Source: an uncultured Acidobacteriota bacterium
GTDB taxonomy: Bacteria; Acidobacteriota; Vicinamibacteria; Vicinamibacterales; UBA2999
Direction: 5' to 3'
NCBI GenBank assembly: GCA_963707825.1
Contig: CAVPRP010000009.1
Coordinates: 154,602-218,601 of the forward strand
Length of the DNA: 64,000 bases
This document shows positions 4,559-50,675 of the stretch, one piece after another. Every line of letters begins with the position of its first letter. Positions within the stretch are counted from its first letter, which is position 1. The notes under the pieces are model-generated. The model saw only the letters and a list, made by a program, of their open reading frames with translations. It was not told the DNA's origin and did not search any database. A program made the translations under genes and the position numbers.

Positions 4559-4561
4559 GGA

Positions 4562-6010: not shown

Positions 6011-6089
6011 ACCTCGACGCCAGTTCAAGACACTCAACAGATCAACAGCTCAGTTCATCAGATCAAGACATCACGACTTCACCAGCTAT

Positions 6090-11546: not shown

Positions 11547-11823
11547 CTCTCGGCGGAAGGGATGGGGGGGCATGCGTTTCGGGACGGTAGCCCTCCCATC
11601 GCCCACTGTCAACGACCCACTGGTCCCGGGGATTCAACCCATCACTCCTCCCAATCGCCGACCAGGCGTTCGGAAATGCACGTTGACTCCTGCGACACCC
11701 CGGCCGGATAATTCGCCCATCCGGAAACGGGTCCGTCATACGTGCGTACTGCGTGTGACTGTCCTTGAACGGTGTCGTTGGCGCCAGCGGCTGGCGCTTA
11801 TGTCTTTTCTTGGAGGAAACCCA

Positions 11824-14571: not shown

Positions 14572-14872
14572 AGAAGGCAAAAGGCAAAAGGCAAAAGGCA
14601 AAAGAACGGCAGACGGCAACCGGCAGTCGGCAGACGTAGAGCCTGAAGCCTGAAGACAGAGACGCCCGGGGTTGCGACATACGCGGCCCCGGGCGATTCT
14701 CTGTACGGAAGGCAAAAAGGAAAAGGCAAAAGGCAGAAGGACCGGCAGCCGGCAGACGGAGGCAGAAGGCACAACGGCGGCCGACAGCTGGCCCTGGCCG
14801 CAAGCCCCAAGACTCAAGACCCAAGACCCAAGACCCAAGACCCAAGCTTCAGCGCAAGCCCCAAGACCTAAG
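14572..14872 (+). repeat. Heptanucleotide tandem-repeat mosaic, locus 2 (two sub-arrays split by a hairpin)
   Basis: AAGGCAA x4, GGCAGAC-type x4, GCCTGAA x2, then a hairpin. After it: AAGGCAA-type x4, CGGCAGC/GGCAGAC, [C/T]CAAGAC x6, and AAGCCCC-type units. Confidence 0.9.
14663..14695. terminator. GC hairpin between convergent genes (possible bidirectional terminator)
   Basis: CGCCCGGGG (14663-14671) pairs with CCCCGGGCG (14687-14695) around a 15-nt loop. It lies between stops at 14567 (+) and 14875 (-). There is no strong T-tract. Confidence 0.45.
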
Positions 14873-14874
14873 CC

Positions 14875-17145
14875 CTACTTGAGCGCCTCCAACTGCTGTC
14901 GTGCGGGCGCGAACTGTGGGTCGATCTCCAGCGCGCGGCGGAAGGCGGTCTCGGCTTCGGCGCGTTTGTTCTGTCGCGCCAGGGCCAGGCCGAGGTTGAA
15001 GGCATACTGCGCGTTCGTGCCGTCGCGCGTGTTGGCTTCACGAAACGCCTGCTCGCCGGCCGCGAGGTCGCCGTTCCCCGCGAGAATCATCCCCAGCGAG
15101 TTCCAGTACGACGCGGTGCCCGGATCGAGCTGCACCGCTTCGCGAAGCAGCCGCGCCGCGTCGGCCGCGCGGCCGAGGTCGCGGTACAGCTCGCCCAGCT
15201 TCACCCGCACCAGTGCATCCTTCGGGGCCAGCTGCGCCACGCGCTCGTAGGCGCGCACGGCGGCGACCGGGTCGTCCATCCGCCGCGCCACGTCGCCTTC
15301 GCGCTCGATCAGCCGCGGGTCATCGGGCGCCACCTTCAAGCCGCGCCGCACCGCCTCGAGCGCCAGGTTCGGCTTGCCATCCGCCAGATGCACTTCGGCC
15401 AGGCCGATGTAGGCGGCGGTGTAGGCCGGCAGCTTCTGCAACGCCCCTTCGTAGTGCGTCGCCGCCTCGCGCCAGCGCTTGAGGCCGACCAGCGCGCGCG
15501 CAGCGTAGTAGTGCGCCTCGAAGCTGTCGATGCCCCTCGCAAACAGCTGCTGGAACCCGGCGTAGCTGGCGGCGAACCGGCCTTCGCGCAGGTTGACCAG
15601 CCCCTCGCGCATCAGCGTGTTGACGATCTGGTACTCCTCGATCTTGTCCTTCGGATCGGCGCCGGACGCACGAGATGCCGCCGGTCCGGACGAACTGACG
15701 TAACCAAGCGCGCCCAGCTTCTCGAGCAGATCGGCGGGGACCGAGGCGGCGGCCGGCCCGGTGTCGCGCAGCAGGGCCTGCTCTTCACGGAGGCGCTGCT
15801 CGATGCCCGATCGATACGCGCGGGCGCGTTGCGGCTCCTTGTCGATCAGGTTCTGCCGCTCGTGGGGGTCCTGTCCCAGGTCGTACAACTCCGGACGCGG
15901 CGCGAGGATGTACTTCCATTGGCCGTCGCGGACCGCGCGCAGGTCGCTCCATCCGTAATGGACCAGCGGCACCAGCGACTCGGCAAACGTCGGCTCCTCG
16001 TCCTGCGGCGTGCCACGTAGCGCCCCGGCCAGCGATCGACCGGACACCTTCGGCGTCTTCGCCGCCAGCCCGAGCAGGTCGAGCACGGTCGGCATGACGT
16101 CAACGTTGCGCGTCACCGCCTTCAGCCTGGTGCCGGGCCTAATCCCGGGCCCGCGCATCAGCAGCGGCACGGCGAGCGTGGACTCGTAGACGAAGAAGCC
16201 GTGCACCGCTTCCTTGTGCTCGTCGAGGCCCTCGCCGTGATCGGACGTGACGATGAGGAGCGTGTCGTCGCGAAGCTTTGCCGACGCCAGGGCCGCGTCG
16301 AGCCGGCCCACCAGTTCGTCGGACCACGCCACTTCCCCGTCGTAGGGACGTCCGGCGTACTTCGTCGCGTATGGCTCCGGCGGTTCGTAGGGATCGTGCG
16401 GATCGTATAGATGGACCCACGCAAACCGCCGGTCCGCACCCGCGGCACCCAGCCACGCCGTCGCCTCCGCCACCGTGGCGTCGCCGCGCTTCTGAATCGT
16501 GTTGAGGAAGCGGGCATCGTCCTCGCCGATGTCGAACTTGTCCGAGTAGTCGGCGAACCCGCGCGCCAGCCCGGACTGCCGCGACAGGACGATCGACGAG
16601 ACGAACGCCGCGGTCTTGAACCCGTTCTGCTGGAGGATCTCCGCCAGCACCGGCACCTTGCCGCCGAGCGGCGGCGAGACGTTGTCACGAATGCCATGCT
16701 CGGCCGGATAGAGCCCGGTGAAGAGCGAAATGTGGGACGGCCGCGTCAGCGGCACGTGCACCGAAGCGTGTTCGGCCATCGCGCCTTCCGAGGCCAGGCG
16801 ATCCAGGTTCGGCGTCGCGACCGTCGTGTTGCCATAGACGCCGAGACGATCGGCCCGCAGCGTGTCGATGGTGACGATCACCACGTGCTTCGGCACGCGA
16901 GCCGCGGCGGGCGGGCCGGACGGCGCCGACGAGCCGCACGCGGCGACGCTCAGGAGGACAGCCACCACCGCGGCCGCAAGCAGGGGGACGCGGCTGGCGG
17001 CTCGGCTTGCGTCTTGAGTCTTGGGTCTTGGGTCTTGGGGCTGTGCCGGCTGCCGGCTGCCGGCTGCCGTTTTGCCTTCTGCCTTGTGCCTTTTGCCTTC
17101 TGTCTTCCGTCTGCCGTCTGCCGCCTGCCGTCTGCCGATACTCAC
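14875..17145 (-). CDS. Sulfatase-fold (alkaline-phosphatase superfamily) + TPR lipoprotein, paralog 1
   Basis: Motifs: IDTLRADRLGVYG, VPLTRPSHISLFTGLYPAEHGIRDN, SDHGEGLDEHKE, lipobox LLSVAAC, and a C-terminal TPR-like region. The only canonical start upstream of the lipobox is GTG 17145 (GTGA overlap with the upstream stop). That start would translate repeat locus 3. The alternative is CTG ~16983. Confidence 0.8.
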   Translation of the reverse strand: MSIGRRQAADGRRKTEGKRHKAEGKTAAGSRQPAQPQDPRPKTQDASRAASRVPLLAAAVVAVLLSVAACGSSAPSGPPAAARVPKHVVIVTIDTLRADRLGVYGNTTVATPNLDRLASEGAMAEHASVHVPLTRPSHISLFTGLYPAEHGIRDNVSPPLGGKVPVLAEILQQNGFKTAAFVSSIVLSRQSGLARGFADYSDKFDIGEDDARFLNTIQKRGDATVAEATAWLGAAGADRRFAWVHLYDPHDPYEPPEPYATKYAGRPYDGEVAWSDELVGRLDAALASAKLRDDTLLIVTSDHGEGLDEHKEAVHGFFVYESTLAVPLLMRGPGIRPGTRLKAVTRNVDVMPTVLDLLGLAAKTPKVSGRSLAGALRGTPQDEEPTFAESLVPLVHYGWSDLRAVRDGQWKYILAPRPELYDLGQDPHERQNLIDKEPQRARAYRSGIEQRLREEQALLRDTGPAAASVPADLLEKLGALGYVSSSGPAASRASGADPKDKIEEYQIVNTLMREGLVNLREGRFAASYAGFQQLFARGIDSFEAHYYAARALVGLKRWREAATHYEGALQKLPAYTAAYIGLAEVHLADGKPNLALEAVRRGLKVAPDDPRLIEREGDVARRMDDPVAAVRAYERVAQLAPKDALVRVKLGELYRDLGRAADAARLLREAVQLDPGTASYWNSLGMILAGNGDLAAGEQAFREANTRDGTNAQYAFNLGLALARQNKRAEAETAFRRALEIDPQFAPARQQLEALK
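17008..17138 (-). repeat. Heptanucleotide tandem-repeat mosaic, locus 3 (inverted relative to locus 2)
   Basis: Plus strand reads GTCTTG[A/G] x4, GGCTGCC x3, TTGCCTT-type x5 and GTCTGCC-type x4. These are the reverse complements of CCAAGAC, GGCAGCC, AAGGCAA and GGCAGAC. Confidence 0.9.
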
Positions 17146-19439
17146 TGCCTCCCCCCAGCCAGCCGTTCGGCGCGCTGCCCGGCCGCGACGTGACGCTGTG
17201 CCTCGGCCTCGCGCCCCAGCCGCGAGTAGACATCGGCCAGCACGTAATGGCCGAGCGGCGCCATCGCGGGGTCTGGCGCGGAGGCGAGTCCCTTCACGGC
17301 GGCCTGTTCGGCCTCTTTCAAATCACCGGCGTCGAGCGCTGCCTTGGCGAGGTACAGGTAACCGGTGCCGAAGTCCGGCTTCTTCTCGACGGCGGCGCGA
17401 TAGTGAGCCAGCGCCTCTCCCGCGCGTCCCGTCTTCGACAGCAGCTTCGCAAGGTTGAACTCCGGCTGGAACAGCTTCGGGCTGCGGGCGATCTCGGCTT
17501 CGTACGCGGCCATCGCGGCCGGCAGGTTTTCGCGGACCTCGTACACCAGGCCGAGATCGTAATGCGCCATGGCCTGGTCGCCCTTGGCCGCAATCGCCTC
17601 GGTCAGCGCCTTCTCCGCCGCATCGAACTGCTTGAGTTCGATGCGCGCTTCGCCCAGCTTCACGAGAAAGGCCGCGCGATCGGCGTCGAGCGTCAGTCCT
17701 TTCTCGAGGAGGGCCGCTGCCTCGGCGAACTGGCCCTTCTCCATCGACAACTCCGCCAGCTGATACAGCGGCTTGGCACCGCGGGGATTCAGCTGCATCA
17801 CCCGTTCGAACCCGGCCCGCGCCTCGTCGTCTTTGCCGGCGGTGCGATAGGCGAGCGCCAGGCTCCACGCCGCGCCCTCGTGCTCGGGATCGACGGCGAG
17901 CGCTCGCTGATAGGCCGCAATCGCGTCCGCCGGACGGCCGGCCTTGGTGTGCATGTTGCCGAGCATGGTGAACGCTTCGATCACTTCCGGATCGGCGGCG
18001 AGCACTTCGCGCACCTTCGCAATGCCGTCATCGAGCTTGCCATCGACGGAATCCTGGGCGGCGCGCTTCAGCAGGTTGTAGAGACCGATCTTGTCCTTGG
18101 GATCGCCGCGCGGCTTGTCGGCCATCGCCGCGCGCGTGACGCCGGAGGCGACGTAGCCAAGCGCGCGCAGTTGCTGCTCGACGGCCGGATCCACCGCGCG
18201 TGGCTGCTGCGGCACCGCCTGCGCCGCGGTCTTGCCGGCCATGTCGCGCAGGCCCCGTTCGAGCGCGTCGGCCATGCGCGGGTTCTCGGCGGAGAGGTCC
18301 TTCAACTCGCCGGGATCGGCCTGGATGTCGTAGAGCTCTCGACGTGGCGCGGCGATGAACTTGAAGCGGCCGTCGCGCACCGCGGTCAATTCGCTCCACC
18401 CGTAGTGATAACGCGGATACCAGGTCTCGCTGAACGCCAGCAGGTCCAGCGGCTCGCCGCGCCCCATCGGCACCAGGCTCGTCCCCTGCACGGCGGCCGG
18501 CACCTCCGCCCCTACGAGATCCAGGATCGTCGGCATCACATCCACGATGCGCACCTGCTCGCGCACCGCGCGCGCCGGGACGTCTGGACCGGCGACGATC
18601 AGCGGAATCCGAACCGCTGCGTCGTAGACGAAAAAGCCGTGCTGCTGCTCGCCGTGCTCGCCCAGCATCTCACCGTGATCGCCGACCACGACGACGATGG
18701 TGGAAGCCAGCCGTCCACTGGCCTCGAGGGACGCCAGCAGGCGGCCGACCTGCGCGTCGGTGGCCGCGACCTCGCCGTCGTAGGCTCCTTGCGCCGTCGC
18801 GGGAAATTGCGAGCGATAGGGTTCCGGCGGTTCGTACGGTCCGTGCGGATCGTAAAGGTGCACCCACGCGAAGAACGGTTGGGTGGTGTCCTTCTCGAGC
18901 CACGCCAGCGCGTGATCGACCACCTCGCGGCCCGGCCGCTGGGCCGCATCGAGGCCGCCGGCCATCTCGAATTTCGACAAGTCGAACTGGTCGAAGTACT
19001 CGCTGAACCCCTGCGCGATGCCCCAGCGCCGGTCCAATACGAACGCGCCGACGAATCCACCGGTCCGGTAGCCGCGCGGCTGCAGCACCTCGGCCAGCGT
19101 GGTCAGCGAGTCGTCCAGGTAGAACGCGCCGTTGTCGCGCACGCCGTGGAAGGCGGGGAACGTGCCCGTCATCAGCGAGCTGTGCGCGGGCAGGGTGAGC
19201 GGCACCACCGTCGCCGCCTGTTCGAAGCGCAGGCCGCGCGCCGCCAGCGCGTCGAGCACCGGCGTCGCCGCCGCCTTGTAGCCGTAGCTGCCGAGTCGAT
19301 CGGCTCGCAGAGTATCGATACTGATGAGGAGGACCGACTTGGCCCCCGAGGCGCGTCCCCCCACCCATCCACGCTGCGCGGCGTACCAGACCGCCGCAAG
19401 CGCCGCCACCATCACGGCGGCGGCAATCACCTTCCGCAT
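17142..19439 (-). CDS. Sulfatase-fold + TPR protein, paralog 2
   Basis: Intact 765-aa ORF. Motifs: ISIDTLRADRLGSYG, VPLTLPAHSSLMTGTFPAFHGVRDNG, GDHGEMLGEHGE, and a long C-terminal TPR region. Confidence 0.85.
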   Translation of the reverse strand: MRKVIAAAVMVAALAAVWYAAQRGWVGGRASGAKSVLLISIDTLRADRLGSYGYKAAATPVLDALAARGLRFEQAATVVPLTLPAHSSLMTGTFPAFHGVRDNGAFYLDDSLTTLAEVLQPRGYRTGGFVGAFVLDRRWGIAQGFSEYFDQFDLSKFEMAGGLDAAQRPGREVVDHALAWLEKDTTQPFFAWVHLYDPHGPYEPPEPYRSQFPATAQGAYDGEVAATDAQVGRLLASLEASGRLASTIVVVVGDHGEMLGEHGEQQHGFFVYDAAVRIPLIVAGPDVPARAVREQVRIVDVMPTILDLVGAEVPAAVQGTSLVPMGRGEPLDLLAFSETWYPRYHYGWSELTAVRDGRFKFIAAPRRELYDIQADPGELKDLSAENPRMADALERGLRDMAGKTAAQAVPQQPRAVDPAVEQQLRALGYVASGVTRAAMADKPRGDPKDKIGLYNLLKRAAQDSVDGKLDDGIAKVREVLAADPEVIEAFTMLGNMHTKAGRPADAIAAYQRALAVDPEHEGAAWSLALAYRTAGKDDEARAGFERVMQLNPRGAKPLYQLAELSMEKGQFAEAAALLEKGLTLDADRAAFLVKLGEARIELKQFDAAEKALTEAIAAKGDQAMAHYDLGLVYEVRENLPAAMAAYEAEIARSPKLFQPEFNLAKLLSKTGRAGEALAHYRAAVEKKPDFGTGYLYLAKAALDAGDLKEAEQAAVKGLASAPDPAMAPLGHYVLADVYSRLGREAEAQRHVAAGQRAERLAGGRQ

Positions 19440-19497
19440 GGCGTTATCGTATCAACCGGGTCGGGCGCTGTCGCGTTCGGGCACCGCATTTCGGGGC

Positions 19498-21081
19498 ATG
19501 ATGATCGGAAACGCCATGGCGACACGACGCGGGCCGTCCGTTTGGGGGCGACGATGCGCGGCAGCCGCGCTTGCTGCGATGGTGGCCTGGCCCCTGGGAG
19601 CCCAGGGACCGCTGCCCCCTGCCGTGGTTGCTGTCCGGGAACCCCTCGACGCCGCCCCCGACCGCGAGCGGCAGATGGACGGCGTGCTCGGAGATCTGTT
19701 CCCGGGCGTGACCATTCAGCCCCTGCCGGGAATCGGCCGACGCCCCGAAGGGCTCAACCTCTCGTTCGCCGAGGCCTTCGAGATCTACCGGGGGAACAGG
19801 GTAGCGTTGCAGACGCTCCGTGACCGCGAGTGCGCGGGCATCAGGGGTGCGACCTGTGGCGACAACCTGCCAGTACGCGCGCGGAAGGTGCTCGATTATC
19901 ACGACCAGCTCGCCAGCCAGACGCTCACCCAACTTGCCGAGGGTATCCGCCAGTCCGCCGCAGCCGGTCGGACAACGGTCGTGTTCGCCAGCAGCGGCCT
20001 TCCCTTCCGGGTCGCGCCCCTCCGTGGGCTCGACGCGGTTCGCAACGCCCTGCGCGAGTCCCGGGCAACGTTGATTGTCCTGGACGTGAACGCCGAAGGG
20101 CGGGCCCTCGAGGGGCTCAAGCGGCTGGTGGACGCGGTTCGCGCCGAGCGCTTCGTCACCACTCCTGACGATCGTTCGAAGTTGCGCGTCCGGCTGAACG
20201 ACCTGGTGGCGATCGAAGACAGCCGCCGGGCCCAGTCGGCCAGCGTTCCGTCGGCGCCTTCGGCCACCAAACCTGCGCCGGCCTTCATGAAGACCGCGAT
20301 TCAACATGCGATCGCGTTCGCCGCCCAGAGCGCATCGCTCGTGGCCGACGAGCACTACGTGCAGGAAGTGAAGGTGCGTCCCTCGATGAGCGCCCTCTCC
20401 CCCGGTTCGTCGGCCGGAATCACCATCGAACGGCGCGTCCTCGAGTCGGAAGTCGCGCTGATTCATGTCGTGGACGGGGAACTCTGGCTGCTCGCTCGCG
20501 ATGTCTTGCAGGTGGACGGGAAGCCCTTGCCCGACGCCGATCGCGTCCGGCTGCCTTCCGTGCACCCATCCTCGACCCCGGAAGCCCTGCGGCTGTTCGA
20601 GCGGATCGCGCAGCAAGGGTCGCGGTTCAATATCGGCGTCATCCCGCGCACGCTCAACACCCCGACCCTGGCGATGTGGCTGCTGACGCCCGCGATCAGC
20701 CCCCGGTTCGAATTCAAGCGCGCCGGCGCCGAGACGATCGACGGCAACCCGTGCGACGTGATCGAATTTCGCGAGCGAACCGCGCCCTATCTGTTCGTCG
20801 TGGCTGATCGGCCCACCCCGGTCGGCGGCCGCTTCTGGGTGGAGCGTCGCCGCGGAGCGGTCGTGAAGACCGAACTGTTGCTGCCGGCGCAATCGGTGGA
20901 GTGGAGCCCATCGCGGGCCAGGCTGATCGTGACCTACGTCCGGGACGCGGCGTTGTCGGCCTGGGTGCCGCGCACCATGACGGAACGCTACGACTCGCCG
21001 ACGTTGAAGCAGTTCGTCATCACCGAGTCCACCTACGCGAACTACCGCCAGTTCACCACCAGCGGCCGCATCGTCAAATAA
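19498..21081 (+). CDS. Hypothetical secreted protein
   Basis: Start trimmed to ATG 19498 (MMIGNAMATRRGPSVWGRRCAAAALAAMVAWPLGAQG, signal-like). I recognise no family. The antisense ORF 19444..21084 is Arg/Gly-rich and judged spurious. Confidence 0.55.
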   Translation: MMIGNAMATRRGPSVWGRRCAAAALAAMVAWPLGAQGPLPPAVVAVREPLDAAPDRERQMDGVLGDLFPGVTIQPLPGIGRRPEGLNLSFAEAFEIYRGNRVALQTLRDRECAGIRGATCGDNLPVRARKVLDYHDQLASQTLTQLAEGIRQSAAAGRTTVVFASSGLPFRVAPLRGLDAVRNALRESRATLIVLDVNAEGRALEGLKRLVDAVRAERFVTTPDDRSKLRVRLNDLVAIEDSRRAQSASVPSAPSATKPAPAFMKTAIQHAIAFAAQSASLVADEHYVQEVKVRPSMSALSPGSSAGITIERRVLESEVALIHVVDGELWLLARDVLQVDGKPLPDADRVRLPSVHPSSTPEALRLFERIAQQGSRFNIGVIPRTLNTPTLAMWLLTPAISPRFEFKRAGAETIDGNPCDVIEFRERTAPYLFVVADRPTPVGGRFWVERRRGAVVKTELLLPAQSVEWSPSRARLIVTYVRDAALSAWVPRTMTERYDSPTLKQFVITESTYANYRQFTTSGRIVK

Positions 21082-21090
21082 CACGTCCCA

Positions 21091-21884
21091 TCAGGTCGCC
21101 TGTCGCAGCATCAGCAGGCCGACGGCGAGCAGGACCATGCCCAGGCTGACGCGCAGCAGGGCCTGAGGCACGCGCGATCCGACGGCCGCGCCGGCAACGG
21201 CCGCGGGAACGGAACCGACGAGCAGATCGCGGAGCAGCCCGCCATCGACCTGGCTGATGGCCAGGTGCCCGATGCCAGCGCAGAGAGCCAACGGGATGGC
21301 GTGCGCGATGTCGGTCGCGACCAGCCGCGAGGGTGTGAGCCTGGTGGGATAGAGATGATAGAGGAAGACGGCGCCCAGCGCTCCGGCGCCGACCGAGGTG
21401 AGCGTGACCAGCGTCCCCAGGGCGATGCCGGCCGCGACGGTCAACATCCCTTCCCATCGCCAGGTCCCGTCCCGTACGCGACAGCGGCCGCGCCGCGAGT
21501 GGACGGCCGCGCAAGGGAGCGAGGCAGCACCAGGCTGAGCGCGGTGATGCAGACCGCGATCGCAATCGCGATCTTCACGAACGTCACGCTCGCCTCGTCC
21601 ATCGGGTGACGCGCCATCCACATCACGGTGAGGATCGACGCCGGCAGGCTCCCGGTCCATAAGCGCCTCACCACCAGCCAGTCGATCAGGCCCTGGCGCA
21701 CGTGCAAGCCCGACACCGCGATCTTGGTGATGGCGGCAAACCACAGATCCGTGCCCACGGCCGTGAGCGGAGCGGTGCCGAACACGAGCAGCAGGATCGG
21801 CGTCATCAGCGCGCCGCCACCCACTCCCGTCATACCGACGACGAAGCCCGTGAGGGCGCCGGCGGCCACGCGCATCGGGTCCAT
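21091..21884 (-). pseudogene. TauE/SafE-family sulfite/sulfonate exporter; one frame change near 21500
   Basis: The N-half ([19 protein letters not shown]) and C-half ([18 protein letters not shown] ... MLRQAT) lie in different frames. Both halves carry the family's repeated glycine-rich motif. Confidence 0.7.
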
Positions 21885-21887
21885 GGC

Positions 21888-23735
21888 TCAGGAAACGACG
21901 GCCAGGATCTGCTCGACGCACTCGTCCACGGTCCGGCCCGTGGTGCGGACGTGCAGCTCGGGATGCTCCGGCGGCTCGTAGGGGCTGTCGATGCCGGTGA
22001 AGTTCGGCAGCGCGCCCGCGCGCGCCTTCGCGTACAGCCCCTTGGGGTCGCGGCGCTCGCACTCGTCGAGCGGCGTGTCCACGAACACCTCGATGAACTC
22101 TCCCTCCGCGAACAGCGCCGCGCGCCAGCTCGCGCTCGGCGCGGAACGGCGAGATGAACGCCACCAGCACGATCAGGCCGGCATCCACCATCAGCCGCGC
22201 CACTTCGGCGACGCGACGGATGTTCTCGGCGCGATCGGCCTCGGTGAAGCCGAGGTCGCGATTCAAGCCGTGGCGGATGTTGTCGCCATCGAGCAGGTAG
22301 GTGTGCCGGCCGGCGGCGAACAGCCGCTGCTCGAGCCGGTTGGCGATCGACGACTTGCCCGGATCCCGACAGCCCGGTGAACCACACGCAGCGCGGCTGC
22401 TGCTGCTTCTGCAGCGCGCGCGCGGAGCGGTTGACCTCGAGCGCCTGCCAGTGCACGTTCGAGGCCCGGCGCAGCGCGAAGTCGATCATGCCCCGCGCCC
22501 ACCGTCTCGAAGGTGAGCGGGTCGATCAGGATGAAGCCGCCGAGCGTCCGGTTCACGGCGTAGGGCTCGAACGCGAGCGGCTGCGCAGTCGACAGATTGA
22601 CGACGCCGATCTCGTTCAGGGCCAGCGTCTTCGCCGCCAGGTGCGCGTCGCTCTCGATGTCGACGCGATGCTTGATCGCGGTCACCGAGGCGCGCACCTC
22701 CTTGGCGTGCGTCTTCAGCAGGTACGACGCGCCCGGGAATCAGGGCGTGCTCGCCCATCCACAGCAGCCGTGGCCTCGAACTGATCGGCCACCTGCGGCG
22801 GCTCCGCCGCGGCGGCGATGACATCGCCGCGGCTCGACGTCCACTTCGTCGGTCAGCGTCAGCGTGATCGAGTCGCCGGCCTCGGCGCGGCTGCGCGTCC
22901 CGTCCAGGGTGACGATGGCGTCGACCTGGGTTTCAACGCCGGACGGCAGCACCCGCACCCGATCGCCGGGGTGCACCGCGCCCGATGCAGACGCGTCCGG
23001 CAAGCGCCGCGGAAGTCCGGGCCCGGTCGGTTGACCACTGGATCGGCATCCGGAACGCGCCGGCCGACGGCGGGCCCGACACTTCGACGTTCTCGAGGTA
23101 GCTCATCACGGTCGGCCCGTCGTACCACGGCATGCGCGGGCTCGGCGCCCGTCAGATGATCGCCTTCGAGCGCCGAGATCGGGATCGGCCGCACGGCCGT
23201 CACCCCGCACTGAGCCGCGAACGCGGCGTACTCGTCGACGATGGCGTCGAAGACCTGCTGGCCGTAGTCCACCAGGTCCATCTTGTTCACGGCCAGCAGC
23301 ACGTGCCGGATCCCCATCATCGCGACGATGCGGGTGTGGCGGCGGGTCTGCGGCAGCACGCCCTTGCGCGCGTCGATCAGGATGATGGCGAGGTCCGCGG
23401 TCGACGCGCCGGTCGCCATGTTGCGCGTGTACTGCTCGTGACCGGGCGTGTCGGCGACGATGAACCGTCGCGGCGGCGGTGGCGAAGAAGCGATAGGCGA
23501 CGTCGATGGTGATGCCCTGCTCGCGCTCGGCCTGCAGGCCATCGACGAGCAGCGCGAAATCGAGGCGCGCGCCCTGCGTGCCGAACCGGCGCGAGTCGGC
23601 TTCGAGCGCGCGCAGCTGATCCTCGAAGACCGCGCCGCGACTCGTACAGCAGCCGTCCGATCAGCGTCGACTTGCCATCGTCCACGCTGCCGCAGGTGAT
23701 CAGGCGAAGCAGGGCCGCGCTCAGAAGTAGCCCTC
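21888..23735 (-). pseudogene. cysN: Bifunctional sulfate adenylyltransferase subunit 1 / adenylylsulfate kinase (CysN-CysC fusion); about 11 frame changes
   Basis: Motifs are spread over three frames. GTPase: [37 protein letters not shown] kinase: [10 protein letters not shown](K)[47 protein letters not shown]. The 5' end is uncertain. Confidence 0.8.
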
Positions 23736-24616
23736 CCGCTTCTTCTTCTCCATCGAGGACGGGCTGGTCGCTGTCGATCAGCCGCCCCTGACGCTCGGAG
23801 ACCGCGGCGGCCGCCGTCTCGGCGACGATCTCGGCGACGGTCGTGGCCGGGCTCTCGATGGCGCCGCTCAGCGGATAGCAGCCAAGGGTGCGGAACCGCA
23901 CGAGCCGGCGCTGCGGCTGCTCGCCCGCGAGCAGCGGGAACCGTTCGTCGTCGACCATGATCAACGTGCCGTCGCGGTCCACGACCGGGCGCTCCTCGGC
24001 AAAGTAGAGCGGAACGATCGGGATGGGCTCGCGTTCGATGTAGCGCCAGATGTCGAGCTCGGTCCAGTTCGAGAGCGGGAAGACGCGAATGCTCTCGCCG
24101 GGATGAATCCGCAGGTTGTAGATCGCCCACAGCTCGGGGCGCTGCGCCTTCGGATCCCAGCGGTGGCCCTGCGAGCGGAACGAGCAGATCCGCTCCTTGG
24201 CGCGCGAGGCTTCCTCGTCGCGGCGCGCGCCGCCGAAGATGACGTCGAAGCGATGCGCGTCGAGCGCCTGCCGCAGCGCCTCGGTCTTCATCACGTCGGT
24301 GTAGTAGCTGGAGCCGTGGGTGAAGGGCGTGACGCCCGCGGCCAGGCCCTCGGCGTTGGTGTGGACGATGAGACGCGCATGCCGGCTTCGCGGACCATGC
24401 GCTCGCGGTGCGCGTACATGTCCTTGAACTTCCAGGTGGTGTCGACGTGGAGCAGCGGAAACGGCAGCGGGCGCCGGGTGGAACGCCTTGCGCGCCAGGT
24501 GCAGCAGCACCGACGAGTCCTTGCCGATCGAGTACAGCAGCACCGGGCGCTCGCCCGCCGCCACGCGCCTCGCGCAGGATCTCGATGCTCTCCGATTCCA
24601 GGGCGTCCAGCGCCAT
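23721..24616 (-). pseudogene. cysD: Sulfate adenylyltransferase subunit 2 (CysD); about 4 frame changes
   Basis: Starts [17 protein letters not shown]. Motifs: [17 protein letters not shown] (PP-loop), [18 protein letters not shown] in another frame, [13 protein letters not shown], and the terminal [12 protein letters not shown] in another frame. Confidence 0.85.
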
Positions 24617-24680
24617 CAGCGTTTCATCATGGCACAGGCACGTTGAGCGCCGCGACCCGGCATATCATCGCTGTTGGCCC

Positions 24681-26749
24681 GTGACCATCATTCGTCGCTT
24701 CGTCCTCGCCGCTCTGGCGGCCGCGATCGCCTCGGGCGGTTGCCGGCCTGCGCCAACACCAGCCCCGGCACCGGCGCGCGCGAACATCCTGCTGGTCACG
24801 CTCGACACCTTTCGCGCGGATCGCGCTCGGCCGCGGGTTCACGCCGGCGCTCGACCGGCTGGCGGCGCAAGGCCTGCGCTTCACCGAGGCGCGCAGCGTG
24901 GTACCGCTCACCCTGCCCGCGCACGCCTCGATCATGACCGGCCAGTGGCCACCGGCGCATGGCCTGCGCCTGAACGGTTCGCCGCGACTGGACGGCGCCG
25001 CCACCCTGGCGACGCAGTTGAAGCAGGCCGGCTATCAGACGCGCGCGGTGGTCGGTGCCTTCGTGCTGGATCGGCGATTCGGTCTCGATGCCGGCTTCGA
25101 CCAGTACGACGATCGCATCGCGCGTGATCCGCGGGCCACCGATGTTCTGCAGGCGGAACGGCCGGCGTCGGCGGTCGCCGGCACCGCGCTAGCGCAGCTC
25201 GATCGGATCAGCGCCGATGCGCCGTGGCTGCTGTGGGTGCACTTCTACGACGCGCACGCGCCGTATACGCCACCGGACGATGCGCGGCAGCGCGCCGGCG
25301 GCGATGCCTACAACGGTGAGATCGCGTATGTGGACGCGCAGGTGGAGCGGCTGCTGGCCGCGATCGAGCGACGCGCGGATGCCGCCCGGACGGCGGTCGT
25401 CGTGGTTGGCGATCATGGTGAGAGCCTTGGCGCGCACGGCGAGCCGACGCACGGCATGCTGCTGTTCGAGCCGGCGCTGCGGGTGCCACTGATCGTGCGC
25501 GCCCCAGGGGTGGCCCCGGCCGAGCGGGCCGATGCCGCGAGCCTGGTGGATATCGCGCCGACGGTGATGGCGCTCGCTGGCGTGAGCGCCGCGGCGACGC
25601 CTGGCCGCAGCCTGCTTGCACTGCCCGTCGACCGACATCGAGACCTACGCGGAGAGCGAGTATCCGACGGTCGCCGCCTGGACGCCGGTGCGGGCGCTGA
25701 TTCGCGAGCGCTGGAAGCTGGTCGCATCGAGCACGCCGAAGCTGTTCGACCTCTCGACCGACCCGGGCGAGCTGTCCGACGTGTCGGCGACGAAAGCTCC
25801 CACGACCAGGGCGATGACTGCCCGCCTGGCCGAGATCAGGCGCCCCTCAACCGGCGCTCGCGCCGGAGGCGCCCCGGTTGTGTCGGCGGAAACAGCGGCG
25901 CGCTTGCAGTCCCTCGGCTACGTGGCGCCGAGCCCCGCAACGGTGCCCGACACCGGCGGCGTCGATGCCGCCACGGCAATGGATGCGTGGGCTTCGTTCG
26001 AAGCCGCGCTCGCCGAGGTCACTGCCGGCGACGCGGCCAGGGCGCTGCCGGCGCTGTCGAAGCTGACTGCGCGCTATCCGGGCTCGCCGATCTTCGCGTC
26101 CACCTACGCTCGGGCGCTGGCGTCAGCGGGACGTGGACGAGACGCGCTGGCCCGGTTGCGGGCTGCCGTCAAGCAGTGGCCTGGCGACTGGTCGCTCTAC
26201 CACGAGCTCGCGGTCGTCGCGCGCGATCTGGGCGAGGCCGACGAGGCACGGCGCGCGGAAGACGCCGCACTGGCGCTCCGTCCGGACGAACCGTCCGCCC
26301 TGAACGGACGCGGTCTGCTGCTGGCCGATGCCGGCCGGCACGATGACGCGGCACGCGCGTTCGACCACGCGGCCAGGCAGGACCCGACCAACGGCGTGTA
26401 TTTCGCCAACCTCGGTAATTCGCGGCGGGCCCTTGGTGACCTCGATGGCGCGGCGGTCGCTTACCAGACGGCACTCGACCGCGCCCCTGATCTCGGCGAT
26501 GCGCTCAACGGGCTCGGCGTGGTGCTGGTCCAGCAGCGGCGGGCAGCCGACGCCGTGCCGTGGCTCGAACGCGCGGCGCAGGACCCAGGGTTCGTCGAGG
26601 CGCAGCTGAACCTGGGCATCGCCCTGCAAGAGTCGGGAAACGTCCCGCGCGCGGTGACGCAGTATCGGAAGGTGTTGTCGACGCCAGGCCCCTTCGCGCG
26701 CGAGCGCGAAGCGGCGCGCACCCTGCTTGGCAACCTGGAGCGCCGATGA
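24681..26749 (+). pseudogene. Sulfatase-fold + TPR lipoprotein, paralog 3; two frame changes (~24825, ~25620)
   Basis: GTG 24681 with lipobox AIASGGC. Motifs: LVTLDTFRADR, VPLTLPAHASIMTGQWPPAHGLRLNG, GDHGESLGAHGE, then a TPR region ending ...LLGNLERR*. Confidence 0.8.
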
Positions 26750-28579
26750 CGCGCGCGCTTCTGGCTGATCGGCCTGGTGGCCGGTCTCTCCGCGTGCACG
26801 CCGGCACCGCCCCCCGAACCGGCGCAGAAGCGTGCTGCTCGTCACCATCGACACGCTGCGTGCCGATCACGTCGGCGCTTACGGCGCCACAACAGCGCGC
26901 ACGCCGGCGCTCGACACCCTGGCGCGCGAAGGCGCGCGGTTCGATCGCGCGTGGGCGCCGGCCCCGATTACCCTGCCGTCGCACGCCAGCCTGCTGTCGG
27001 GCCGATATCCGCCAGGTCACGGCGCCCGACACAACGGGATGGCGATGCAGGCCGTCCCGACGCTGGCCACCACGTTCAAGGCGGCCGGCTTCGCGACCGC
27101 GGCATTCGTGTCGGCCTTCCCTCTCGACAAGCGCTTCGGGCTCACCCGCGGCTTCGATCACTACGACGATGAACTGCCGCGCGGGACGGACGGCCGGCCG
27201 TTGAACGAACGGCCCGGCGCCGACACCGTGTCCCGGGCGCTCACGTGGCTGCAGGCCCACGGCGACGAGCGGTTCTTTCTCTGGGTTCACGTCTTCGAGC
27301 CCCACGCGCCGTACGGCACACCCGGCTCGGGCGCGCCGGTCGCAGGCGCGCTACGACGACGACATCGCCGTCGCGGATCGCGAGTTGGGAAGACTCCTCG
27401 CGGCGCTCGGCGGCCGGGCGGCCACTCACGCTCGTGATCGGCGCCAGCGATCACGGCGAGGCCTTCGGCGAGCACGGCGAAATCGGGCACAGCATCTTCG
27501 TCTACGACACGACACTGCGGGTACCGCTGGTCATGCGTGGCCCCGGCGTGCGCGCCGGGTACCGTCGTGCCGGGCGACGTGTCGCTGGTGGACCTGGCTC
27601 CGACGCTTCGCGCGCTCACGGGCACGCCGGCGATGGAAGGGGACGGGCTGTCGCTGACCCCGGCACTTGCGGGCGGCACCCTGCCTGCGCGGCAGCTCTA
27701 CGCCGAGTCGTACGCGCCGCTCCTCGACTTCGGATGGGCCGGCCTGCGGGCGGTGCGGGAAGGGCCGTGGAAGTACATCGCCGCCCCGCGGGCCGAGCTG
27801 TACGACATCTCGCGCGATCCCGGGGAGTCGGCCAACCGGATCGGCGAGAATCCCGAGCTCGAGGCCCGCCTGGACGGAGACGCCAGGCAGCGCAGCCCTG
27901 CCGAGCCGGGCGCTTCCCCGGCCATGGCGCCGGAGGCCGTCGCGCGGCTTCAGAGCCTGGGGTATCTCAGCGGCTCCGCACGTCCCGGGAGTGCGACAAC
28001 CCGGCCGGATCCCAAGGATCGGATTACGGTGGCGTCGCGCCTGGCCACGGTCACCTCGGGCGAGGTGCGCGGCGACGAGCTGATTGCCACCCTCGAGGCC
28101 GTGCTCCGCGACGACCCGCCCAATCCGCAGGCGCACCTCCGACTGGGCTTTGCGGAGATCGAGCGCGGGCGATGTGCGCAGGCCGAGCCGCACCTGCGGG
28201 CCGCGCTCGATGCCGGCATGCCGTCGGCCGATGCCGGCCTGGGGTTGGCCGCCTGTTTCGGGCAGGCCGGCAACCTGACGGCCGCCCGCGAGGCGCTGCT
28301 GGCGGCGCGCCGAGCCGAGCCCGGCAACCCGGTGGTTGCCGCCAACCTGGGGATCCTGGAACTCGCCCAGGGGCGCGTGGGGCCGGCCATCGCCGAACTG
28401 CGCACCGCCCTGGCCGCCGAGCCCGGGCTGCTGGAGGCGCGGTTCGCGCTGGCCCGCGCGCTGGCCCGGTCGGGCGACCGCGAGGGGCGGCGGCCGAAGC
28501 CAACACCCTGCTGGGCCAGTTGCCGCCGGGCGCGCCACAACGCGCAGAAGTGCGGCGTTTGCTCGACGCCCTCCGCTAG
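26746..28579 (+). pseudogene. Sulfatase-fold + TPR lipoprotein, paralog 4; about 6 frame changes
   Basis: ATG 26746 overlaps the paralog-3 stop (ATGA). Lipobox LVAGLSAC. Motifs: LLVTIDTLRADHVGAYG, APITLPSHASLLSGRYPPGHGARHNG, SDHGEAFGEHGE, and a TPR tail ending ...RRLLDALR*. Confidence 0.75.
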
Positions 28580-28728
28580 GCGCTGGCCCCGTCTGGGGCG
28601 ATTCATCTGGGACGAACGGTCAAAACTGCGCAATTTCTGCGCAACTTCTTTCGATTCATGGCCTTACGGGCAGGGACAGCGCCTTGACAGGAGGGGGTCT
28701 GTAGTGTTCAGCTTCTTAATTGTTGTTC

Positions 28729-28757
28729 TGTTGTTGATTGTTGTTACTTCCCAAGGA
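28729..28757 (+). promoter_or_regulatory. T/G-rich low-GC leader with three tandem 9-mers directly upstream of the TonB-receptor-2 RBS
   Basis: TTGTTGTTC TGTTGTTGA TTGTTGTTA is followed by cttcccAAGGAGAgcttctATG (28766). A TTGACA hexamer lies at 28685-28690. Confidence 0.3.
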
Positions 28758-28765
28758 GAGCTTCT

Positions 28766-31712
28766 ATGTCAACGATGCGGCGAGCCGTGTGGCTCCTGGC
28801 GTTGTTCCTACTCACCAGCGTCTCGGCATCGGCGCAGCAGACGACCGGCACCATTGTCGGTCGCGTGCTCGATGACCAGGGCGCGGCCATTCCCGGCGCC
28901 ACGGTCATCGCCTCGAGTGCCTCGACCGGCTTCACGCGCGAAGCGATCTCGCGATGCCGAAGGCGTCTACCGCCTGAACGCGCTGCCGGTCGGCCGCTAC
29001 GACCTGACGGTCGAGCTCGCCGGCTTCAGCCAGCGTCGAACGCAAGGACGTCGTCGTCAACGTCGGCCAGACGATCACGCTCGACTTCACGCTGCAAGCG
29101 TGGCGACCGTCGCGGAGACGATCACCGTCACCGCCGCAGGCGCCGCTGATCGAGTCGTCGGTGTCGTCGGTCGGCGGCGTCGTCGACATCGGCCGCATCG
29201 AGAGCATTCCGCTCAACGGCCGCCAGTTCGCGAACCTCGCCGCGACGCTGCCCGGCGTCGGCCTCGGCAACCACTCCGATCCGACCAAGAGCACGCAGTA
29301 CTCGCCGCAGATCAACGGCGGCAACGGCCGCAACGTGAACTACCAGATCGACGGCGGCGACAACAACGACGACACCGTCGGCGGCCTGCTGCAGCTGTTC
29401 CCGCTCGAGGCGATCCAGGAATTCAACTTCGTCACCTCGCGCGTCGAAGGCCGAGAACGGCCGCAGCAACGGCGGCGTGATGAACATCGTCACCAAGAGC
29501 GGCACCAACAACGCTCCGCGGCAGCTTCTTCACGCTGTTCCGCGACGATTCGATGAACGCGAAGACGACCACCGAGAAGAACAACAACAGCGACAAGCAG
29601 GACTACCGCCGCTACCAGTACGGCGGCAGCTTCGGCGGCCCGATCGTCAAGGACAAGGTCGCACTACTTCGGCGCGGTCGAGCGCACGCAGCAGGACACC
29701 TTCCAGGTCGGTGTCAACACGAGGGTCTGTTCCCGGCGCAAGACGGCACCTACGCCACGCCGTATCGCGAGACGCTGCTGAACGTGAAGGTGACCGCCAA
29801 CATCACCCCGAGCCAGTACCTGTCGGTTCGCTACGGCCGCAACCAGAACTCGCAGCCGTACGGCGCCGACGTCGAACCGCGCGCCGAGCAACTGGGGCGA
29901 CAGCACCAACGACGTTCAACTCGATCAACCTGAACCACAACTGGGTGCTCGGCGGCACCAAGCTGAACGAGTTCATCTTCCAGTACGCCGACTTCGCCGA
30001 ACGACATCACGGCGCGCAGCCACGATCCCTACCAGATCTTCCCGAACGGCGTGGCCGTCGGGCAGAGCCCGAACACGCCGCAGACCACGCGAGCAGAAGA
30101 AGTGGCAGTTCCGCGACGACTTCTCGTGGCACCTCACCGGCAAGGGCGGCGTCGGCCACGACTTCAAGACCGGCGTGAACTTCATCAACGAGCCGACGCC
30201 TGTACATCAGTTCAACACGCGGCAAGGGCGTCGTGCAGTACACCCACCTGACCGACAACGTCGAACGGACCGATTTCGACGGTCACCCTCAACGACGGCG
30301 ACGCGTCGGCCAACATCCCGCTGAAGCAGTACGCGTTCTTCGTCCAGGACGACTGGGCGGTGAACGACAAGCTGACGCTGAACGTCGGCCTGCGCTACGA
30401 CCTGATCGACGGCTACCAGTTCGACCAGTCGAAGAACCCGAACTTCGTCAAGATGCAGGACGCCGGCCGCGCCGGGCAGCTCACCGGCATCAAGGGCCTG
30501 GAGAACTTCGGCCAGGATCCCGAAGGACGACACCAACAACTGGCAGCCGCGCCTCGGGCTTCGCCTACGACGTGCGCGGCAACGGCAAGGACGTGATCCG
30601 CGGCGGCTGGGGCATCTACATGGACATGGCCTACACCAACTCGAACGCGCTGTTCGCGGCCAGCGACGCCACCGGCAAGGGCTTCGGCGCCGTGCTGTCG
30701 GTCGACAACCAGCCGGGCATTCGCAACCCGGACGGCACGCTTCTACCAGGCCGGCCAGCCGCTGTCGAACATCGCGAGCCAGAACCAGTCGAATCCGAAC
30801 GCGCTGCCGCTGTTCGGCCAGTTCACCGATCCGCGCCTGCAGATGCCGTACACGCGGCAGACCTCGCTCGGCTGGTCGCACGAGCTGTCGCCGAGCACCG
30901 TGTTCACGGCCGACTTCGTCCGCGCCGACGGCCGCGACCTCAACGTCCGGCCGCGCATCAACACGCGCATCATCCCGAACGGCGCCGCGCGTGCTGGCGT
31001 TCCTGAACCTCGCTGCCCAACGCGATCGGCACGCGGCCGGCGATCAGCCGCGGCGAGAGCGAAGTACACCGCGCTCATCACCGGCGTCAAGCGCCGCATG
31101 ACGAACAACATCGATTTCGCGGTCACCTACACGCTGGCCGAAGCGCGCAGCCAGATCGGCACGGCGTCCGACGAGCTGAACGCCAACCTGCTGCAGGACG
31201 CCGACGCTGCTGTACGACGACCCGCGCGTCTACGGCCCGACGTCGCGCACCGATGCGCGGCACTCGGGCTCGCTCGTCGATGGTCTGGCTGGTGAAGGGC
31301 TTCACCATCGCGCCGACCTACTTCTACCGTTCGCCGCTGCCGGTGCAGACCATCACGGGCGTCGACGCCAACCTCAACGGCGAGAACAACGACCTGCCGG
31401 AGCGCGCCTACCAGTTCACGGACGTCGGCCAGGCGCCGGAGGACATCGGCGCGTGCGAGACCTGGAACTGCAGCCGCGGCGCGTGGCGCACGCAGATGAA
31501 CCTGCGCGTCTCGCATGGCTTCGGCCTGGGCGGGCAGCGCGCGCATCGAGGCGATTGCCGAGGTGTTCAACCTGCTGAACGCCAAGAACCCGAACTTCAC
31601 CATCGTCAACAACCAGACGAGCGCGCTGTTCATGCAGCCCGACGCGTTCGCGGGTGACTTCCAGCAGCGCGAACAGCGCGTCGGCCAGATCGGCTTCCGC
31701 TTCTCGTTCTAG
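28766..31712 (+). pseudogene. TonB-dependent receptor with carboxypeptidase-regulatory-like domain (paralog 2); about 25 frame changes
   Basis: Starts MSTMRRAVWLLALFLLTSVSASAQQTTGTIVGRVLDDQGAAIPGATV. Recognisable receptor blocks hop between all three frames: IESIPLNGRQFANL, GVMNIVTKSGTNN, DKLTLNVGLRYD, GWGIYMDMAYT, VFNLLNAKNPNF. The gene ends ...QIGFRFSF*. Confidence 0.8.
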
Positions 31713-34662: not shown

Positions 34663-35559
34663 ATGTTCCGCGCCAGGATCTTCCCGCTCGTCGGCGTTGC
34701 CGCAGCCGTGGCGCTCTCCGTGTTGCCCGCCGGTGCCGACCAGCGGGGCGGACACCGTGACGGCGGAAGCGGCCAGCCGCAGGCGACTCCCCCACCCGAT
34801 ACCGGACGCCACGCGGTGCCACGGCCCGTTGACGGTGGCCCGGCTGCCGGTGGCGCCGGTCGTGATGTCGTCGTGATGACGCCGGGCGTCGGCGCGCAGC
34901 ACTACCGACCTCCGTATGCCTACCCGGGTCCCGTCTACGGCCCGTACCGCCACCCCGTCTATAACTCGTTCCGCGGCCCGACCTACGGCCCGTACCCCGG
35001 TCCCGTCTACGGTTCGCCGTACCGCTACTCGCATCCGTACTACGCGTTCCGGCCGCACACGACGCTCGGCATCGGGTTCTACGCAGGGTTCGCGGTACCG
35101 TTCCCGAGTTTTGCCTACGGAGGCTTCTCTCCCTACTACGGCGGCGCGTACGGGTATCCCGCGCCCTACCCGGTGCCGTATCCGGTGCCCTATCCCTCGC
35201 CGTACCCGTCGACCGGCTATCCCGCCTACAACTCGTCCGGATATCCCCCGATTGGTAGTCCGGGGCAGGTTCCGCCGCCGGGCGGCATCACGATGGTGCC
35301 GGGGTCCACGGCTCCAGGGACGGTGGCCTACGGAGGCGTCAGCATCGAGGTGACGCCCAGGGACGCGGAGGTGTGGGTCGATGGCGGTTACGCCGGACGC
35401 GCGGACGACTTCGGTCCGCAGGACCGGCCGCTGACGCTGGCGACCGGCGTGCATCGCGTCGAACTGCGCGCGCCGGGCTATCAGCCGCTCGCGTTCGACG
35501 TCAACGTCGCGGCTGGGTATGTGGTGCCGTTCCAGGGAGTCCTGCAACCGCAGCCGTAA
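34663..35559 (+). CDS. Secreted Pro/Tyr-rich protein with a C-terminal PEGA domain
   Basis: Signal peptide MFRARIFPLVGVAAAVALSVLPAGA. Low-complexity P/Y/G region (YPAPYPVPYPVPYPSPYPS). PEGA-like VSIEVTPRDAEVWVDGGYAG...VELRAPGYQP. Confidence 0.7.
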   Translation: MFRARIFPLVGVAAAVALSVLPAGADQRGGHRDGGSGQPQATPPPDTGRHAVPRPVDGGPAAGGAGRDVVVMTPGVGAQHYRPPYAYPGPVYGPYRHPVYNSFRGPTYGPYPGPVYGSPYRYSHPYYAFRPHTTLGIGFYAGFAVPFPSFAYGGFSPYYGGAYGYPAPYPVPYPVPYPSPYPSTGYPAYNSSGYPPIGSPGQVPPPGGITMVPGSTAPGTVAYGGVSIEVTPRDAEVWVDGGYAGRADDFGPQDRPLTLATGVHRVELRAPGYQPLAFDVNVAAGYVVPFQGVLQPQP

Positions 35560-47341: not shown

Positions 47342-47390
47342 CGGCCGCGACCGGCCGAGCGCCGGTGGACCGAGGTCCCACTCGCGACCG

Positions 47391-48480: not shown

Positions 48481-48512
48481 CCGGCCGCGACTGTCGATGA
48501 GATGCCGGTAGA

Positions 48513-48541: not shown

Positions 48542-48547
48542 CACGGT

Positions 48548-50674: not shown

Positions 50675-50675
50675 G

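Follow-up and report, generated by a model that had tools for sequence, protein, structure and literature searches.

The window, by which we mean the whole stretch of 64,000 nucleotides analyzed here, contains a block of six genes whose reading frames are repeatedly broken. On the minus strand, the gene for a TauE/SafE-family sulfite exporter (21,091–21,884) carries +1 insertions at 21,471 and 21,497. The cysNC fusion (21,888–23,760, minus strand, start approximate), which encodes sulfate adenylyltransferase subunit 1 and APS kinase, has eleven +1 sites (22,118, 22,357, 22,489, 22,729, 22,771, 22,831, 22,984, 23,005, 23,147, 23,472, and 23,634) and one -1 deletion at ~23,037, and cysD, which encodes sulfate adenylyltransferase subunit 2 (23,721–24,616, minus strand), is shifted by +1 at 23,761, 24,473, and 24,567 and by +2 at 24,379. 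On the plus strand, the gene for sulfatase-TPR protein 1 (24,681–26,749) has +1 insertions at 24,826 and 25,627, and that for sulfatase-TPR protein 2 (26,746–28,579) has +1 changes at ~26,751, 26,825, 27,342, 27,426, and 27,554 and a -1 change at ~28,485. The sixth gene, TBDR2 (28,766–31,712, plus strand), encodes a TonB-dependent receptor with an N-terminal carboxypeptidase-regulatory-like domain and contains about 23 frame changes, nearly all of them +1.

When the frames were corrected, the encoded proteins matched their Pfam profiles end to end. The corrected TauE protein spans positions 2–237 of the 237 of PF01925, the corrected CysNC matches GTP_EFTU and GTP-eEF1A_C together with APS_kinase at full length, and the corrected CysD covers positions 2–174 of the 175 of PAPS_reduct. 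The corrected TBDR2 protein has 973 amino acids and aligns over its full length with homologues of 973–976 amino acids. Neither in-frame stops nor truncations were found in any of the six genes (alignment coverage, 0.96–1.00), in agreement with a sequence-only reading of this DNA, which had seen no nonsense codons or large deletions in the encoded blocks. The nearest match to the corrected TBDR2 protein was 86% identical in amino acids, and the comparison yielded no reference from the same species for the zone; closer matches to TBDR2 are lacking probably because the closest genomes hold this gene in fragments.

The frame changes were counted by frameshift-aware protein-to-DNA alignment, for which we used our own dynamic-programming script with intact homologues from short-read contigs as queries. 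About 49 frame changes were found in a hot zone at 21,471–31,532 (no strand assigned; the bounds are the first and last window-unique frame-changing indels), comprising about 46 insertions of +1 or +2 and three -1 deletions. By gene, the counts were two for TauE (two +1 events, 1 net frame change), 12–13 for cysNC, four for cysD, two and six for the sulfatase-TPR genes, and 23 for TBDR2, close to the 1, about 11, about 4, 2, about 6, and about 25 estimated manually in the sequence-only reading. The rest of the window contained about 23. Events thus number 4.75 per kb in the zone against 0.43 per kb in the remainder of the window, an 11-fold difference (binomial P ~1e-22); the left flank is devoid of events over 6.6 kb, for which P is ~2e-14 at the hot-zone rate. 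An ab initio codon-usage Viterbi model with frameshift states gave 6, 35–41, and 16–20 events for 0–21.4, 21.4–31.7, and 31.7–64 kb, respectively. The sequence-only reading had put these at 6, about 49, and about 16 and had proposed a ten-fold local concentration, which these counts bear out; the density is not uniform. GC composition was rejected as the cause, since the GC content of the zone (0.66–0.73) overlaps that of the flanks.

The borders of the zone were also seen in a three-way DNA alignment of positions 14,862–36,356 of the window with its closest relatives, L007 (92% nucleotide identity) and L001 (87%). The 42 cleanly resolved, window-unique insertions of 1–2 bp all fell within 21,471–31,532, and all 42 were missing from both L007 and L001. 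To the left, at 14,862–21,470, this alignment showed no window-unique insertion of 1–2 bp, and to the right the coding sequence was likewise free of them between 31,533 and ~35,000. A complex site at 35,012–35,013 lies outside the cleanly resolved set.

Some of the frame changes elsewhere in the window were confirmed as well. The CocE/NonD-M28 peptidase gene (7,609–11,486, minus strand) is split by two +1 changes at ~10,465 and 10,904 according to protein alignment, and frame switches at ~13,537 and ~13,643 appear in the tblastn HSPs of a short-read homologue. The sites at 4,792, 47,892/48,212, 53,234, and 55,772 each lie inside a spanning Pfam domain. Two further groups of ab initio events, at ~40.9–41.1 kb and 61.2 kb, were set aside as probable gene junctions. 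A second, milder cluster of such errors, with about 10–13 window-unique 1-bp indels, occupies 46,056–50,277 (no strand assigned). In this cluster, the AcnX gene has a compensated pair, +1 and -1, at 46,056 and 46,433, as shown by DNA alignment with a 97%-identical MEGAHIT short-read contig. Neither L161 nor L162 nor the short-read contig L163 has this pair, and the AcnX open reading frame stays at 418 amino acids although ~125 codons between the two indels are out of frame.

Several adjacent genes with frame-disrupting lesions would be the appearance of pseudogene decay, as in host-restricted or relaxed bacterial lineages. One alternative is that the indels are real and that a very recent burst of +1 changes inactivated the PAPS pathway, both sulfatases, and the receptor. 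The changes are present in the deposited sequence, the affected block is functionally coherent in being sulfur-related, and the position of the cys block varies among the relatives, so that it may be dispensable. However, decaying genes accumulate nonsense codons, truncations, and large deletions, unlike those in the window, and 49 neutral indels should have brought hundreds of substitutions and several nonsense codons, none of which were seen. Between 21.4 and 29.4 kb, window-specific substitutions are as frequent as in the flanks; an excess of window-unique substitutions occurs within TBDR2 only, and we attribute it to foreign alleles in a hybrid consensus. In addition, window-unique substitutions still favor the third codon position (51% in the zone and 57% in the flanks), in a test that is noisy because the frame was taken from local GC3; this pattern shows neither relaxation nor neutrality, in keeping with genes that are otherwise intact and under purifying selection.

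The spectrum of the insertions also differs from that of natural events. Indels in bacteria are naturally deletion-biased and concentrated in homopolymers. In the zone, by contrast, ~46 insertions stand against three deletions (P = 7e-11), and only seven of 40 insertions extended a homopolymer, whereas 23.1 ± 3.2 were expected. A new CpG was created by 26 of the 40 (12.3 ± 3.0 expected), and 35 of 42 inserted bases were unlike both of their neighbors. The codon slots of the insertions were nearly uniform (14:10:8), which lends no support to an origin at wobble sites. On the plus strand, the inserted base was G in 24 cases and C in 10, and this richness in G was independent of gene orientation, which suggests that the underlying process follows the assembled strand.

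The same spectrum bears on programmed or phase-variable frameshifting, in which the shifts would be recoding sites or contingency loci. Beyond the existence of the frameshifts, nothing favors this idea; up to 23 shifts occur within one gene, the sites lack homopolymer or short-repeat tracts, the inserted bases mostly differ from both neighbors, no slippery motif is common to the sites, and the events affect both strands and six unrelated genes. We regard it as vanishingly improbable.

Comparison with other assemblies of the same genes links the lesions to the assembly technology. The nearest relatives of the window are MFD Nanopore MAGs, which were assembled from Nanopore reads only, with Flye and one round of Medaka and without short-read polishing (PMC12313526, MFD-LR catalogue). 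Among Nanopore MAGs, with the window presumed to be one of them, the TBDR2 orthologues carry 23 (the window), 16, 13, 7, 7, 1, 1, 0, and 0 frameshifts, and those in four contigs whose short-read platform was judged from the contig names carry 0, 0, 0, and 2, this one pair of shifts amounting together to an in-frame change. The L007 genome has a hot zone of its own, seen in L162, with ~12 unique +1 insertions in ccoN/ccoO, whereas the gene table of a JGI contig that is 98% related lists an intact ccoN of 466 amino acids (for two JGI contigs, the comparison drew on gene tables only). Clustered +1 insertions thus recur at different positions in related Nanopore-only MAGs, and the lesions of the window itself are absent from all relatives, unlike what is expected of decay.

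The identity of the inserted bases provides a further clue. For TBDR2, the inserted base equaled the allele of any orthologue in the adjacent column in 12 of 14 cases (null, 6.5; P = 0.004). The allele of L164 alone was matched in 10 of 15 (null, 1.4; a score not equaled in any of 2,000 shuffles) and that of L003 in nine of 15, whereas close syntenic relatives were matched in only one or two of 15. When the Nanopore TBDR2 sequences were pooled, 35 of 41 inserted bases matched (19.2 expected). In line with these values, the identity of the TBDR2 gene of the window is a mosaic, some segments being nearer to L164 than to L007. The cys genes (L007 allele in four of 14; null, 0.6) and sulfatase 2 (L004 allele in four of five) gave a weaker signal in the same direction; beyond TBDR2, both the events and the sequences available for comparison are few. 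The three-way allele test gave 0 of 19 for L001 and one of 13 for L162, which counts against blending. Taken together, the agreement between the base inserted in TBDR2 and the adjacent allele of another homologue suggests a consensus that blended two haplotypes and retained the allele of each. A paralogue within the window was rejected as the second haplotype, as self-comparison gave only sulfatase-domain matches of 65–72%; the second haplotype would have to come from another part of the genome or from a different organism.

Four observations make recent inactivation by real indels very unlikely: insertions outnumber deletions 46:3, they avoid homopolymers, they carry the two-allele signature, and the defect is seen again in further assemblies from long reads, though in none from short reads. 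A variant in which the insertions are physically present, a local burst without slippage, such as an error-prone repair or recombination tract copying a diverged homologue, having disabled the 10-kb block in one lineage, is scarcely credible. The frame changes are very probably errors of the deposited consensus rather than mutations of the organism, and the view that a local drop in consensus quality, not pseudogene decay, produced them is well supported.

The cause of the drop was considered in turn. Plain low coverage would leave a thin or unpolished patch near single-read quality, with random read noise and no second haplotype. The sharp borders of the zone, its 10-kb length, which resembles a long read, and the excess of G over C, expected if a few reads of one strand dominate, are compatible with this; Nanopore bins of low coverage are known to retain indels, and R10.4 bins below 40-fold coverage still require short-read polishing (PMC9262707). 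However, random Nanopore noise should also produce mismatches and deletions, as well as errors in homopolymers. Neither deletions (three of 49) nor homopolymer errors are elevated in the zone, where homopolymer extension is in fact depleted. The rise of window-unique substitutions is missing from 21.4–29.4 kb, and the inserted bases agree with alleles of other homologues much more often than expected by chance. Low coverage in its simple form, as the sequence-only reading had entertained it, is thus doubtful. Its other suggestion, that the zone was excluded from short-read polishing because paralogs exist elsewhere, fared unevenly: the alleles found in the insertions are indeed those of a second homologous haplotype, but exclusion from polishing does not fit the relatives, which have the same defect although their pipeline was Nanopore-only.

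A hybrid-consensus artefact from reads of two related sequences is, as a whole explanation, highly likely; given an artefact, the blending of haplotypes is the probable mechanism. The contig piece, of a Vicinamibacterales-like Acidobacteriota, was almost certainly assembled from a soil or sediment metagenome sequenced in long reads and presumably passed through a Nanopore-only pipeline of the Flye/Medaka type. At the block from TauE through cysNC, cysD, and the two sulfatases to TBDR2, the consensus or polishing step, presumably that of Flye or Medaka, would have met reads of two related, differing sequences. The second of these may have come from a relative in the same community, from a strain collapsed into the contig, or from a paralogue. 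At many of the positions where the two differ by a substitution, the consensus would have retained both alleles in tandem, and each such site would yield a one-base insertion and hence a frameshift.

This proposal can be compared with two described classes of assembly error. Errors of Nanopore-only assemblies and MAGs (PMC9262707, PMC12313526) likewise fragment otherwise conserved genes by single-base indels, are found in long-read-only MAGs and are missing in short-read contigs of the same genes, and are clustered and assembly-specific. The textbook error, however, is a homopolymer deletion or length miscall, whereas nearly all errors in the zone are insertions, which avoid homopolymers and tend to create CpGs; the insertion of a second homologue's allele suggests a consensus of mixed reads rather than homopolymer base-calling. 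As for collapsed strains, those that are related end up as one consensus sequence in Flye (PMC8302730), and the window resembles such contigs in what would be one consensus from the reads of two related genomes over a shared segment, in sharp segment borders, and in a mosaic identity to relatives along a gene. In contrast, that literature describes collapsed contigs rich in SNVs, and the insertion of both alleles in tandem, the outcome proposed here, was not found described there.

These results have consequences for the reading of this genome. Read literally, the record would lead a metabolic reconstruction to score assimilatory sulfate activation (CysD, CysNC), the sulfite exporter, two sulfatases, and the TonB-dependent receptor as pseudogenes or as missing. 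The artefact can be recognized from the sequence by clustered +1 changes that avoid homopolymers, new CpGs in a GC-rich genome, and alleles of a second homologue. Intact open reading frames may conceal such errors, as shown by AcnX, so that checks of gene length alone underestimate the problem. In biological terms there is nothing unusual in the finding, and annotation should count the genes of the PAPS pathway, the sulfite exporter, the two sulfatases, and the receptor as intact.

After repair of the reading frames, the flagged stretch of the window (GC 69%), 21.4-31.7 kb, encodes a TauE/SafE exporter (21,091-21,884), a cysNC fusion (21,888 to ~23,760) and cysD (23,721-24,616) on the minus strand, followed on the plus strand by two sulfatase-TPR proteins (24,681-26,749 and 26,746-28,579) and a 973-aa TonB-dependent receptor, TBDR2 (28,766-31,712). 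The corrected proteins matched their Pfam profiles end to end, and the gaps between corrected TBDR2 and its homologues of 973-976 aa reflected natural length variation only. A scan with one genome per species assigned the window to a Vicinamibacterales-like position in the Acidobacteriota, and the closest loci were L007 (MFD03066.bin.2.161) and L001 (MFD09730.bin.2.47), both from Microflora Danica MAGs, which are collinear with the window over 14.9-36.3 kb at 92% and 87% nucleotide identity, respectively. No same-species reference for the affected region was found among the homologues of corrected TBDR2.

Frame changes were counted with a frameshift-aware protein-to-DNA aligner written for the analysis, with intact homologues on short-read contigs as guides. 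The aligner placed 1 net frame change (two +1, i.e. two single extra bases) in TauE, 12-13 in cysNC, 4 in cysD, 2 and 6 in the sulfatases and 23 in TBDR2, about 49 over the six genes, and detected no in-frame stops in any of them. The manual counts of the sequence-only reading were thus accurate gene by gene, as was its remark that nonsense codons are missing. An ab initio codon-usage Viterbi model with frameshift states gave 6, 35-41 and 16-20 events in 0-21.4, 21.4-31.7 and 31.7-64 kb, respectively, and same-phase runs in a GC3 phase plot were 100-600 nt long in 21.2-31.9 kb, compared to 1-2.7 kb elsewhere. A three-way alignment of the window, L007 and L001 revealed 42 short insertions (1-2 bp) private to the window; all fell within 21,471-31,532 (hereafter the zone), with none in 14,862-21,470 and none in the coding sequence after the zone. 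The density of frame changes was 4.75/kb in the zone and 0.43/kb outside (binomial P ~1e-22), a highly significant local concentration.

These comparisons of sequences strongly suggest that the frame changes are artefacts, produced by a hybrid consensus when the metagenome was assembled from long reads; the platform of the window is judged from that of its relatives. About 46 of the 49 frame changes in the zone were extra bases and 3 were missing bases. The inserted base was unlike both neighbours in 35 of 42 cases and extended a homopolymer in 7 of 40, where random slots would give 23, and 26 of 40 insertions created a new CpG (12 expected). In plus-strand notation, G was inserted 24 times and C 10 times, a bias present in minus-strand as well as plus-strand genes, and all three codon slots were occupied (14:10:8). 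The earlier proposal of lost consensus quality rather than decay therefore proved right, given the excess of extra bases, the absence of stops and the full-length corrected proteins, whereas the scarcity of deletions and the low homopolymer extension point away from low coverage, which it had suggested as a cause.

A real, recent inactivation of the block by indels would account for the same broken frames. Natural bacterial indels, however, are biased to deletions and concentrated in homopolymers, unlike those in the zone on both counts. In addition, 49 neutral indels should bring several nonsense codons, none of which was seen in the six genes, and an excess of hundreds of substitutions with no preference for any codon position, which was not seen either; window-specific substitutions did not exceed those of the flanks in 21.4-29.4 kb and were two- to three-fold above them in TBDR2. 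We consider such inactivation highly improbable.

For the TBDR2 orthologues in Nanopore-derived MAGs, the frameshift counts were 23 (the window, whose platform we infer from its relatives), 16, 13, 7, 7, 1, 1, 0 and 0, nearly all +1 and none accompanied by stops. In four contigs whose names indicate MEGAHIT, SPAdes or JGI, the counts were 0, 0, 0 and 2, the pair netting an in-frame change. Widening the comparison via the Kup gene added the loci L161, L162 (from the genome of L007) and L163 (a MEGAHIT contig), at 95.2%, 94.4% and 97% nucleotide identity to the window, respectively. The MEGAHIT assembly ERZ27267964 includes a contig of this species with 97% identity. L162 has a hot zone of its own in ccoN/ccoO, which encode a cbb3 oxidase, where ~12 +1 insertions are private to it (L162 ~4,700-6,750, corresponding to 38.5-40.6 kb of the window), and a 98%-related JGI contig carries an intact ccoN of 466 aa and a FixO-cytochrome c gene of 415 aa. 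A private +1 cluster was likewise observed in ccoN/ccoO of L161, and the ccoN/ccoO genes called in related Nanopore MAG contigs are fragments of 92-177 aa; ccoN of the window (38,276-39,676) is intact. According to the group behind the MFD-LR MAGs, short-read polishing is still needed for R10.4 bins below 40-fold coverage (PMC9262707). For these MAGs, Nanopore reads were the sole input to Flye (meta mode), followed by a single Medaka 1.8.0 round and no short-read polishing (PMC12313526); since the relatives share the defect, the evidence points away from the other suggested cause, exclusion of this region from such polishing.

In an alignment of 16 TBDR2 orthologue sequences, the base inserted in the window equalled an adjacent-column allele of other orthologues at 12 of 14 sites (6.5 +/- 1.8 expected, P = 0.004). 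The same was seen in two other Nanopore MAGs, L001 (8/9) and L020 (6/6), and the pooled Nanopore count was 35/41, compared to 19.2 expected. The inserted base matched the neighbouring allele of L164, a P0003-type receptor with 86% nucleotide identity in another genomic context, at 10 of 15 sites (1.4 expected) and that of L003, another homologous locus, at 9 of 15 (2.0 expected); for the close syntenic relatives L007, L001 and L081, the matches were just 1-2 of 15. At one of these sites, for example, the window reads TCAGCCA, L007 TCA-CCA and L164 TCG-CCA, both alleles standing in tandem in the window. TBDR2 is also a mosaic in identity, L164 rather than L007 being the closer sequence at 30,316-30,434 and 30,910-31,021. 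For the cys genes (4/14 against L007, 0.6 expected; 6/14 against L003) and sulfatase 2 (3/5 against L001, 4/5 against the homologous locus L004), the signals pointed the same way but were weaker.

A self-comparison detected no close paralogue of the zone within the window. The TBDR2 orthologue is duplicated in tandem in three relatives (L004, L005 and L015), and equally similar 973-aa homologues (~85% aa) occur in very different neighbourhoods (L164 and the contig encoding P0001). These communities thus harbour several members of this receptor family of almost equal length, a situation that could promote cross-mapping of reads.

A synteny breakpoint coincides with the left edge of the zone. 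The TauE-cysNC-cysD block (21,091-24,616) is missing here in the short-read relative L081, where a sulfatase gene directly follows the gene equivalent to 19,288-21,078, and is located downstream of the receptor in L003; the location of the block thus varies among members of the group. The right edge coincides with a highly divergent spacer (31.7-31.9 kb), and both edges fit a shared segment between unshared flanks. Reads of a second, related copy of the block probably accumulated on the contig at the consensus or polishing step; this copy could stem from a relative in the same community, a collapsed strain or a paralogue. At differing sites, the consensus would then retain both alleles in tandem, yielding a one-base insertion. 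In this genome, with a GC3 of ~90%, C/G differences at wobble sites dominate, so that a tandem-allele error would avoid homopolymers and often create CpG or GpC. Collapse of related strains into one consensus by Flye is documented (PMC8302730).

Outside the zone, several frame changes were confirmed through homology or domain continuity. A ~1,300-aa CocE/NonD-M28 peptidase fusion (7,609-11,486, minus strand) is broken by two +1 at ~10,465 and ~10,904, and a second TonB-dependent receptor (11,665-14,564, plus strand) by two +1 at ~13,537 and ~13,643. These two split genes show that the whole window has a background of ~0.4 such errors/kb. Arrays of 7-nt tandem repeats, with units such as CCAAGAC, CTTGGGT, TGCCGTC, GGGCTTG and CGGGAGA, were observed in at least six intergenic spacers (4560-4646, 14574-14604, 14801-14886, 17006-17137, 50468-50675 and 62176-62274); their copy number varies between the window and its relatives, and two of the spacers (17.0-17.1 and 50.5-50.7 kb) are alike (72%).

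For AcnX (45,669-46,925, plus strand), a private +1 at 46,056 and a private -1 at 46,433 are both missing from L161, L162 and the short-read contig L163. The AcnX reading frame is uninterrupted and of normal length (418 aa), yet ~125 internal codons are out of frame, an error invisible to gene-length checks. In the zone, TauE, cysNC, cysD, both sulfatases and TBDR2 are to be regarded as intact genes.
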